IMG/VR virus record: IMGVR_UViG_2563366976_000008
Coordinates: 1-11,953 of that record
DNA length: 11,953 nucleotides
Direction: 5' to 3' (one strand)
Source: a virus
Taxonomy: Duplodnaviria; Heunggongvirae; Uroviricota; Caudoviricetes
Shown here piece after piece: positions 9,001 to 11,953 of the stretch; the stretch's first letter is position 1, and each line of letters opens with the position of its first letter. Made by a program: the position numbers.

Positions 9001-11953
9001 GTTATCACTTCTGCTCTCATTGCTGGTTTGCGCTTGCATTGCAAGACCACTCGTGAGGGGGTTGGCCTGTGTAGCTTGTCGGAGCTGATCGCCTCCTGAC
9101 TTTGCAGATTTGCACGACGAGCTCTACGGCGAGAAGCTGCGGTTCCTTTAAATTCTGTTTTTCTGGACATAGATTCCTCCCGAATAAACTTTGGCGATGC
9201 AATCTCGAAGCCCCTCCTGAGACGGTTGCTTCGGCATTGCATCCCACAGCTTATGTGGTTGGGTGATCTGGCTTTTCAGCCACGTAGTCGAGTGTTCGAC
9301 GTTGTTTAAAGAGCCTGCCAATCTTTTCCGTTTGGCTACCAGCGTCCTGCTGATGGAAATAATAGTCACATATTGTGATTTAATGGTCAATCACAAAATG
9401 TGTAAAATAAGGGTGTGACACGTTATGTGTATGATTTTTTTGTGTAAATAGTTTTCCCCGCGATGGGTTTGCTTACTTAAGGCGGGGGAAACAGCAGGAT
9501 GGTGTGCTGAAAAGTTCGAAAAACGAGCGAAGTAGGTGGTGACGAGATGGCGGGATATGGGAGTTGTATTAAGAATTATAGTAATTTAATCAGAGGCTTG
9601 GGCTGGCTGGCAGGTGCTGTCCTGATAGTTATGTGCAGGCAACAAAAAACCCGGGGCGGTTCAGGTTGTCTCATTTTTTAGTTTGCTTTGGATTCGGTTT
9701 GTCTCTTCTTCCAATTATAAACACGCTAGTTAAAGCAACTAACTCAGCACCAAGAAGCCCGGTAGCCCAGCCATAAGCCTCGTGCTGAATCATCTTGTAA
9801 GCAATTCCTGCGAAAACAAAGACAGAAGTCATCGCAAAGATCTGTCCGAGTCGATCTCGCCAAATTGCTCCCCTCTGTCCTGCTTTGTAATACTCGTGTC
9901 TGTGTTTTTGCTCAGCCTTAGCCATGTCCATTATTTCGCGAGCGAATCCTGGAGATATTCTTTCGTACTTAGCTAATTCGTCAGCGTCTGGGAGTGGCCC
10001 TGATCTAGTGTGAGTCACCTGCATCATGATGCCAGCTAGATCTGGCCTGTCCATGAGGCGCTCAAGAACTTGAGGGTTCTTTGCGACCTCATTTATAAGC
10101 AGTTCGGTTTTACCGTCTTGAACTCGCCCTAACGGAGTTGGTTGGTTAACAAGATTTCTCGGTGCGGCGGTTTGAAGCTTTCTTTGGGATTTTTTTCTGC
10201 TCATTATCAGTTACAGCGTCTCTAACGTAACTACCTACCTTAACCCAATCTGAGTTGATAAGGTCGATGTCTGTAGCATTTGAATGATACTCGCTGTAGC
10301 TACCTGCTGGGCAAAGGTCAAGGATAGAGCCCATAGCGCTGAAAAAGTGCTTTGCAGATTTTTTCATGTGGGGTGTCCTATATGTTGTTTACTCTAATTT
10401 GAGTAATTGAAGTTTACGCAAAACCTAGCTTTCAGCAAGCAATACAGCACAAAAAATCATGTAAATTTGCGTCTATTTTTATCTACCGGAAAAATGCTCA
10501 ACAACTTTAGAGAAAAAATAGCAATACCAAATCAAACCAATTGCTGCTTCGCCTCTACCCAAACGTCTCTTCAGGCCACTGAGCCTTAACTACCTTGCCT
10601 ATGATGCGGCATGTGTGATCGCAGTCCAGGGTTCTGTATGCCGGATTCAATGGAACCAAGTAACTAACCCCTGCATCCTTCTCATACTTCTTGAACGTTG
10701 CCTCTGAATCACCATTTGCAGAAGCCACGCAGAAATCCCCAGACTCTACCGGCTCGGCCGGATCAACGAGTATCAGCATACCCTCAGGAAAACTCGGCCT
10801 TACGCCCTGTGGCGCAGTCATAGAATGGCCTTTCACCTCAAGCCAGAAAGCTTTTTCGCTGGCTTTTGTGGTCGTTGGGACCCATGCCTTTGCATCGCTT
10901 GCTGTGTAGCTTCCAACCTCCGAAAACGGCCCGGCCTGCACTGAAGAAAATAACGGGTACTCATATTGGCGAAATACAGCGTCTGAATCCTCGCCAAACA
11001 TTATTTTTGCCGGAGATACGCCGAGTGCCGCCCCAAGAACCAGCGCGTCATCCGCGCTAACCTTTCTTGTTCCTAACTCGTAGTTCCCCAGGCGTGAAGG
11101 CGCAGCCCAGCCGCAAAGCTTGGCCAATTGAGCCTGGCTAAGTCCTTTAGCTTCTCTAAGGGACTTGATCCTTTCCCCGATAATTTCATGCATCGTTTTC
11201 ATCCTTTAAATGTAACACGCAACGTGATTGAACTCTGTACACGAATTGAGGTTGACTGTTAATCACAAATTGTGTGTAATGGGTGTGTGATTAATACTAG
11301 GGAGACCGCAATGAACAAAATTGCCCAGCAGCGAAAAAAAATCGGAGTTTCGCAAGCTGTACTGGCTTCGGCAATTGGTTGGGGGCAATCCCGCATCGCC
11401 AACTATGAGCTGAATATCCGTACTCCTAGACTTAACGATTGCCGAAAGATCGTAGAAGGCCTCAGGAAGTTAGGGTGCCAATGTTCTTTGGATGATGTTT
11501 TCCCTCCATCCAGTAACAAAGCCGCCTAAGCAGTACCCGCTCTTTGTAACAACGGACATTCGTCCTACGTCGCTGAAAAGCGAGTCCCAAGATATCTGAC
11601 CAACTAAGGCCATATGCGTTTCCACGCATACCTTTCAACTAACTATTCACTATTGGAAATCTTAAGAAATGGAAAGAACAAGTTACAGCAAACTATCACA
11701 GCGTGACGTTGATCGCGCTGAAACAGATTTACTTATCAACCTGTCAACGCTTACTCAGCGCGGTCTGGCAAAGATGATTTGAACCGCCCCGGGAATCCTG
11801 GAGACTAAACTTCCTGAGAAAGAGGTAAACAGGATGACTAAAAATACTCGTTTTTCCCCTGAAGTCCGTCAACGGGCAGTCCGTATGGTTCTGGAAAGTC
11901 AGGGCGAATATGACTCACAATGGGCGACAATTTGTTCCATTGCTCCAAAGATT

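Follow-up and report, generated by a model that had tools for sequence, protein, structure and literature searches.

Gene content of the prophage region

The window, by which we mean the whole stretch of 11,953 nt analysed here (IMG/VR record IMGVR_UViG_2563366976_000008), carries the early-left arm and the immunity region of a lambdoid prophage with P22-type replication genes. It is the exact reverse complement of positions 8252-20204 of the E. coli scaffold KB732669.1 (GCA_000351465.1; L029 in our numbering), which was found via an exact look-up of the 177-aa DUF2335 protein encoded at 9671-10204. In brief, the integrase gene (1-1074, minus strand) is followed by genes for AntA-like, Ead/Ea22, Abc2, Kil, cIII and SieB products and by N (8898-9170, minus strand). 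Further right lie a degraded intrinsic terminator, the DUF2335 gene, orf73, cI encoding an S24-peptidase repressor (10555-11202, minus strand), cro (11311-11529) and the beginning of cII, which is interrupted by an insertion sequence that runs to the last base of the window.

The integrase gene directly adjoins a torS-like sensor kinase gene (L029:20299-20534), and the attachment site is thus placed next to torS. At the 5' end of cIII (7028-7228) the minus strand matches the Rfam family Lambda_thermo (RF01804), the cIII mRNA thermoregulator, at positions 7123-7181 with 88.5 bits against a gathering score of 50.

Two pairs of repeats frame the immunity genes. A 20-nt inverted repeat, 90% complementary and containing a GCTGAAAAGC hairpin, is found at 9268-9287 and at 11565-11584; from their position we infer that these are the boxB sites of nutL and nutR, respectively. 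The hairpin at 11565-11584 is on the plus strand, beyond cro and upstream of the insertion sequence. A 33-nt repeat with 79% identity, GTCAATCACAAAATGTGTAAAATAAGGGTGTGA, occurs at 9386-9418 between N and the terminator and at 11258-11290 between cI and cro, and by position the two copies would be the OL/PL and OR/PR operator-promoter regions.

The insertion sequence at the right end of the window

Positions 11780-11953 (174 nt, plus strand) are the first 174 nt of IS629, an already known element of the IS3 family. All 174 positions are identical to a 1310-bp reference copy (L001:2501-3810) from AP019704.1, whose CDSs are annotated as 'IS629 transposase OrfA' and 'IS629 transposase OrfB'. The first-pass annotation of this DNA had named an IS629-type element starting at 11780 with the N-terminus of OrfA behind the terminus, and the comparison confirms both the type of element and these two features. 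A megablast search of the 174 nt against the PLSDB plasmids matched 3,083 records, 272 of them at 99% identity or above, and many of the plasmid copies are 100% identical across all 174 nt. In RefSeq this element appears as 'IS3-like element IS1203 family transposase'; we take IS1203 to be an isoform of IS629.

From 11780 onward the window reads TGAACCGCCCCGGGAATCCTGGAGAC..., or in a longer reading TGAACCGCCCCGGGAATCCTGGAGACTAAAC.... Base 11780 is the exact first base of the left inverted repeat (IRL, 11780-11807, plus strand), which begins with 5'-TG, whereas 11953 is merely the end of the window. The IRL is TGAACCGCCCCGGGAATCCTGGAGACTA and the right inverted repeat (IRR), taken from the scaffold and written as its reverse complement, is TGAACCGCCCCGGGTTTCCTGGAGAGTA. 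They form an imperfect pair with TG...CA termini: the outermost 14 nt are identical, and over the full 28 nt there are 25 matches. The orfA gene, encoding the helix-turn-helix transposase subunit of the IS3 family, opens with an ATG at 11834 on the strand of rightward (PR) transcription, and its codons 1-40 (11834-11953, plus strand) translate to a 40-aa N-terminal fragment and are identical in nucleotides to the CDS of BBK50482.1. Neither this fragment nor the 37-aa CII fragment described below matches an NCBIfam model on its own, both being too short.

The sequence to the right of the window was read from KB732669.1. A scaffold gap of 575 Ns begins 2 nt past the last window base, inside IS629, and for this reason the window ends within the element. 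Both the window and the short-read contigs of the same locus thus end where assembly breaks inside a multi-copy insertion sequence. On the far side of the gap are the last 202 nt of IS629, identical to the reference copy at 201 positions. They include the last 52 codons of orfB, reading KSWKNRAEVELATL...DDLAA*, and the IRR, ...CTCCAGGAAACCCGGGGCGGTTCA; the orfB codons are identical to the reference in DNA, and the sole differing base is downstream of the stop codon. In the scaffold the element spans 953 nt including the Ns, as against 1310 bp in the reference, the size of the gap being an estimate. About 930 nt of central IS629, with the end of orfA, the frameshift site, the pseudoknot and the DDE core, fall in this gap.

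IS629 (IS3 family, IS3 group, with the isoforms IS1203 and IS1203v) occurs in E. coli O157:H7 and O145:H28 and in Shigella. The element in the window agrees with it in the TG...CA termini, the imperfect inverted repeats of about 28 nt, the 3-bp target duplication and the location in a prophage, and shows no differing feature in the sequenced ends, the central approximately 930 nt falling in the gap of the source scaffold. IS629 is common in prophages, which hold 62% of its copies in O157 genomes (PMC3271280).

Interruption of cII

The insertion sequence lies within cII. The cII reading frame begins with an ATG at 11669 on the plus strand, runs through ...GCA AAG ATG ATT and then meets a TGA stop made up of IS bases 1-3, so that the cut gene (11669-11782) has 37 codons; its 37-aa product has a PF05269 (Phage_CII) match on record. 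IS629 had been described as marking the right edge of the immunity region, and this has to be corrected, as the insertion point is after codon 37 of a gene and not in intergenic DNA.

The left junction reads GATGATT/TGAACC, and the ATT at 11777-11779 is the left copy of the target site. In the scaffold the right junction is GGTTCA/ATT/GGTTGTCATG, that is, the IRR followed by ATT GGT TGT CAT GAA TCG.... Intact cII has a single ATT at this place, ...GATGATTGG.... When the 37 codons to the left of the IS and the 61 codons to its right are joined, the rebuilt CII has 98 aa, of which 97 are identical to the intact CII of another prophage (L030). The two halves of the element were joined by scaffolding, and the ATT duplication together with the cII reading frame ties them to each other. 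An exact look-up of the 37-aa stub found the cII/IS629 junction again in an independent short-read assembly (L007, SRR640107), which equals the window in gene order and in the stretches compared, namely the cII/IS junction and the terminator region described below.

Because the 3-bp ATT is duplicated and cII is continuous across the IS, we conclude with high confidence that this is a simple, single insertion of IS629 into cII in which all the flanking DNA was kept. The first-pass annotation had suggested instead that the element may have caused deletion or rearrangement of the downstream replication and late regions, and had proposed that extension to the right should reveal orfB, the right inverted repeat and a target-site duplication. 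KB732669.1 shows the terminal part of an IS3-family orfB, the right repeat and the 3-bp ATT duplication, so that the refutation named for the element, a downstream sequence lacking orfB and the right repeat, did not occur. Behind them the scaffold continues with cII codons 38-98, a 53-aa ORF, a 296-aa gene at the O position, a gene for a 478-aa DnaB-type helicase, and further downstream ninB, ninE, ninF, ninG, a phosphatase gene and a Q-type antiterminator gene. The suggestion of an IS-caused loss is therefore not supported.

Two other histories were considered for this side of the locus. In one, IS629 would stand at the border of an IS-mediated deletion or rearrangement that removed or displaced the replication and late genes; comparable events are indeed seen at IS629 copies in the corresponding segment of other E. 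coli prophages (L003 and L004, see below). In the scaffold, however, the right inverted repeat is followed by the duplicated ATT, by the exact remainder of cII and by the full replication, nin and Q set, and we regard such an event here as very improbable. The other arises from a short motif at 9647-9663 that matches the IRR: together with the IRL at 11780 it might represent the remains of a compound transposon that imported the DUF2335-cI-cro module. Two IS ends do bracket positions 9664-11779, and the left boundary is a mosaic junction between phage modules. The ATT duplication, on the other hand, flanks the right-hand IS629 alone and cII is continuous across it, from which it follows that this IS inserted by itself and not as one end of a composite element; moreover, the terminator at the left boundary forms a module boundary in many prophages without any IS. 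A compound-transposon origin of the immunity module was therefore excluded on the duplication around the right-hand IS, and we attach hardly any probability to it.

The simple insertion is thus the reading that we follow. According to it IS629, a 1.3 kb element that moves by a copy-out-paste-in mechanism, jumped once into cII of a lambdoid prophage beside torS in E. coli and cut CII to a stub of 37 residues. Such a stub is predicted to be non-functional. Phage released from this lysogen would be expected to establish lysogeny poorly owing to the loss of CII, and maintenance of the lysogenic state by cI should be unaffected. After induction, the replication and late genes would be expressed only through transcription across IS629. 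With a nutR-like site upstream of the IS, transcription modified by N would already be antiterminated on reaching the element, and this makes read-through of IS629 plausible. Taken as a whole, the prophage has cII knocked out by IS629 and an early-right region that is otherwise structurally intact, and the presence of IS629 is no ground for scoring it as a deleted remnant.

The terminator behind the cI operon and an IRR-like motif

An intrinsic terminator position is found at 9640-9681 (minus strand), at the end of the cI-orf73-DUF2335 operon. Presumably, judged by position only, it corresponds to lambda t_imm. Lambda t_imm, downstream of rexB, has the same place, between the final accessory gene of the cI operon and OL/PL-N, and the window differs from it in that the stem is disrupted. 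We compared window positions 9625-9690 with those of related prophages (L027-L046, L005 and L006). The terminators of the relatives read GGCAAAGAAAACCCGGC-loop-GCCGGGT, with the loops GCGGAA, GCTGAG or GCGGTG, and those of Sp15-type phages read CCGGC-TCGGTG-GCCGG. The relatives form a GC-rich stem, 8-9 pairs long and with a U-tract behind it, that folds at -18.9 to -19.5 kcal/mol, as against -9.3 kcal/mol (z = -0.71) for the window. Although the loops vary, the stem is intact in every relative examined, and the window alone is without it. The variant in the window reads CCCGGGGCGGTTCAGG; its left arm AAAACCCGG and right flank GGTTGTCTCATTTTTT are preserved, but between them it has GGCGGTTCA where relatives have, for example, CGCGGAAGCCG.

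Immunity modules with very different cargo, among them DUF2335, HigB-like and DUF1828 genes and others, have this terminator as their left boundary. In the window it marks the switch from a Sp15-like left flank to the DUF2335 module, that is, the mosaic junction mentioned above.

Within the altered terminator, 7 nt beyond the stop codon of the DUF2335 gene, lies the 17-nt motif AAACCCGGGGCGGTTCA (9647-9663, plus strand), identical at 17/17 positions to the outer end of the IS629 right inverted repeat and located 2.1 kb from the IS629 at 11780. The first-pass annotation had noticed a solo inverted-repeat-like motif at 9650-9663 and related it to the IS. These 14 nt are a perfect inverted match to 11780-11793, and the match to the IRR terminus extends to 9647. 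The motif is therefore real and longer than first described; its link to IS629 is plausible rather than proven, given that the terminator of related prophages natively has 12 of these 17 nt. Matches to the IRR terminus with at most 3 mismatches are expected by chance 0.03 times per window, and none of 200 shuffled sequences gave two of them. The relatives match at 12-13 of the 17 positions, as for example AAACCCGGCGCGGT in L041; about 2.4 matches at 12/17 are expected per window by calculation, which places the native resemblance within chance. The motif is carried by one lineage only; 21 complete E. coli genomes share the DUF2335 module, and the variant occurs in none of them.

We propose that the 17-nt motif is probably the scar of a former second copy of IS629 that was lost by a deletion between microhomologies. 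The second copy would have inserted in the same orientation as the window's IS629 at ...GCCG/GGT/TGTC, duplicating GGT. The native AAACCCGG and its 8-nt counterpart within the right inverted repeat would then have served as the endpoints of a deletion that removed the body of the IS, left its last 9 IS-specific bases, the GGCGGTTCA noted above, and destroyed the right arm of the terminator. With the ancestral loop assumed, a reconstruction with the GGT duplication and the AAACCCGG-to-AAACCCGG deletion yields the observed sequence base for base.

Processes of this kind are documented. Loss of IS629 with adjacent deletions and microhomology joining by the IEE PrimPol-helicase has been described, as have deletion scars that 'intrude into the IS' end (PMC9943667; bioRxiv 10.1101/2023.06.07.543989). 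In scars left by IS loss, both in the IEE- and transposase-dependent excision of IS629 and in the loss of ISApl1 from Tn6330, a few bases of an IS end stand beside a short repeat shared with the flank. The motif in the window is like those scars in form, with the difference that the event is here deduced from one sequence.

A full IS629 in the terminator would give a contig end ...CCAGGAAACCCGGGGCGGTTCA/GGTTGTCTCA. No full IS629 was found at the terminator site in any relative among complete E. coli genomes, IMG/VR, metagenomes and GTDB representatives; of the contigs carrying the DUF2335 protein, the 24 longest of 2,078 index blocks were read. The scar together with its right flank had no match in IMG/VR, metagenomes and GTDB representatives. 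In addition, an 18-mer, AAAACCCGGGGCGGTTCA, was looked up in IMG/VR, where it has 12 matches at 11 loci (L047-L057), all on unrelated viral or metagenomic contigs. In non-lambdoid contexts, 9 of the 12 matches are preceded by ...GGAGCCTCC(TC/GG/TAC) and look like termini of other IS3-family elements, and no match in IMG/VR is a scar in a lambdoid terminator. The outer approximately 18 nt of the inverted repeat thus appear to be conserved well beyond IS629, and because the 18-mer seems to occur in other IS3-type termini as well, the motif alone cannot assign the IS of origin strictly to IS629.

It should be noted that the motif could also be unrelated to IS629, namely a mutated terminator allele that matches the inverted repeat by coincidence. 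Since the native terminator agrees with the repeat at 12-13 of the 17 positions, which is within chance, only 5 extra matches have to be explained, and the search for a full IS629 at this site was negative everywhere. Set against this, the 5 added matches amount to one multi-base replacement that recreates the exact IS terminus ...GGTTCA, the same replacement destroys a stem conserved in every relative examined, and an active-looking copy of the same IS is only 2.1 kb away; we consider a coincidence possible but rather unlikely. A further reading gives the terminator an active part: its resemblance to the right inverted repeat of IS3-family elements (AAACCCGG-GCGG, 12-13 of 17 nt) would make it a mimic of the repeat that attracts IS629, and the subsequent removal by transposase/IEE-type joining at microhomologies would leave a 9-nt footprint that disables the terminator. 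In that case PRM transcripts could read into nutL-N in the lysogen. Gapped patterns run against IMG/VR retrieved no full IS629 end at a distance of up to 25 nt from either arm of the terminator, and with this result the idea that the terminator attracts IS629 is left without support; we hold the whole scenario to be doubtful. The microhomology scar of a second IS629 is therefore the reading we retain. As a probable scar, the motif would represent a gain and loss of an IS that left a regulatory lesion, a broken terminator, with nothing for IS annotation to detect, and it is a single inferred case.

A 12-nt exact copy of the interior of the IRL, GAATCCTGGAGA (11793-11804), is also found at 9944-9955 within the DUF2335 gene. 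About 0.3 repeats of this kind are expected in 3 kb and the protein is identical in IS-free relatives; we therefore regard this copy as a chance match.

Other insertions of IS629 in early-right operons

The exact cII/IS629 junction of the window was found as a contiguous match in none of 5,426 complete E. coli genomes, and likewise in none of the sequences of IMG/VR, the GTDB representative genomes and the JGI metagenomes. In two Logan contigs, SRR7367360_127 (L008:4561-4588) and SRR10947160_271 (L010:3644-3671), the same ATT of cII is followed by an inversely oriented IS629, whose IRR end, TGAACCGCCCCGGGTTTCC, abuts GATGATT. The prophage in these contigs carries another cI/cro module and a cII allele that differs at several silent positions; theirs is an independent insertion of IS629 at the identical bond. 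When complete E. coli genomes were searched for the L008 junction, with its inverted IS629, only intact cII genes came up. Codon 37 of cII could be a true hot spot for insertion of IS629. The exact look-up of the 37-aa stub retrieves only this site, however, and because it is biased in its ascertainment we do not call a hot spot. No clear target consensus was apparent among 14 IS629 flanks. The sequence GGTTGTC is shared to the right of both sites considered here, in the terminator and in cII; at cII it is allele-specific, the corresponding sequence in L030 being GGCTGTC.

Other E. coli lambdoid prophages (L002, L003, L004 and L027) also have IS629 in this early-right operon, within the cro-cII-O segment, and RefSeq annotates these copies as IS3- or IS1203-family transposases. 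Several of these copies have adjacent deletions, from cII to O in L003 and from O to Q in L004, whereas the copy in the window is a clean insertion. In L003 (NZ_CP148289.1, 3176365-3188726) IS629 lies in cII, 32 nt upstream of the site used in the window, and its right end abuts an O gene that lacks its 5' part, which indicates an adjacent deletion. In L004, IS629 joins a truncated O gene to quuD. The immunity region of L003 is heavily IS-ridden: to the left of cI it has another IS629, which is truncated and inverted, and beside N there is an IS66-family element.
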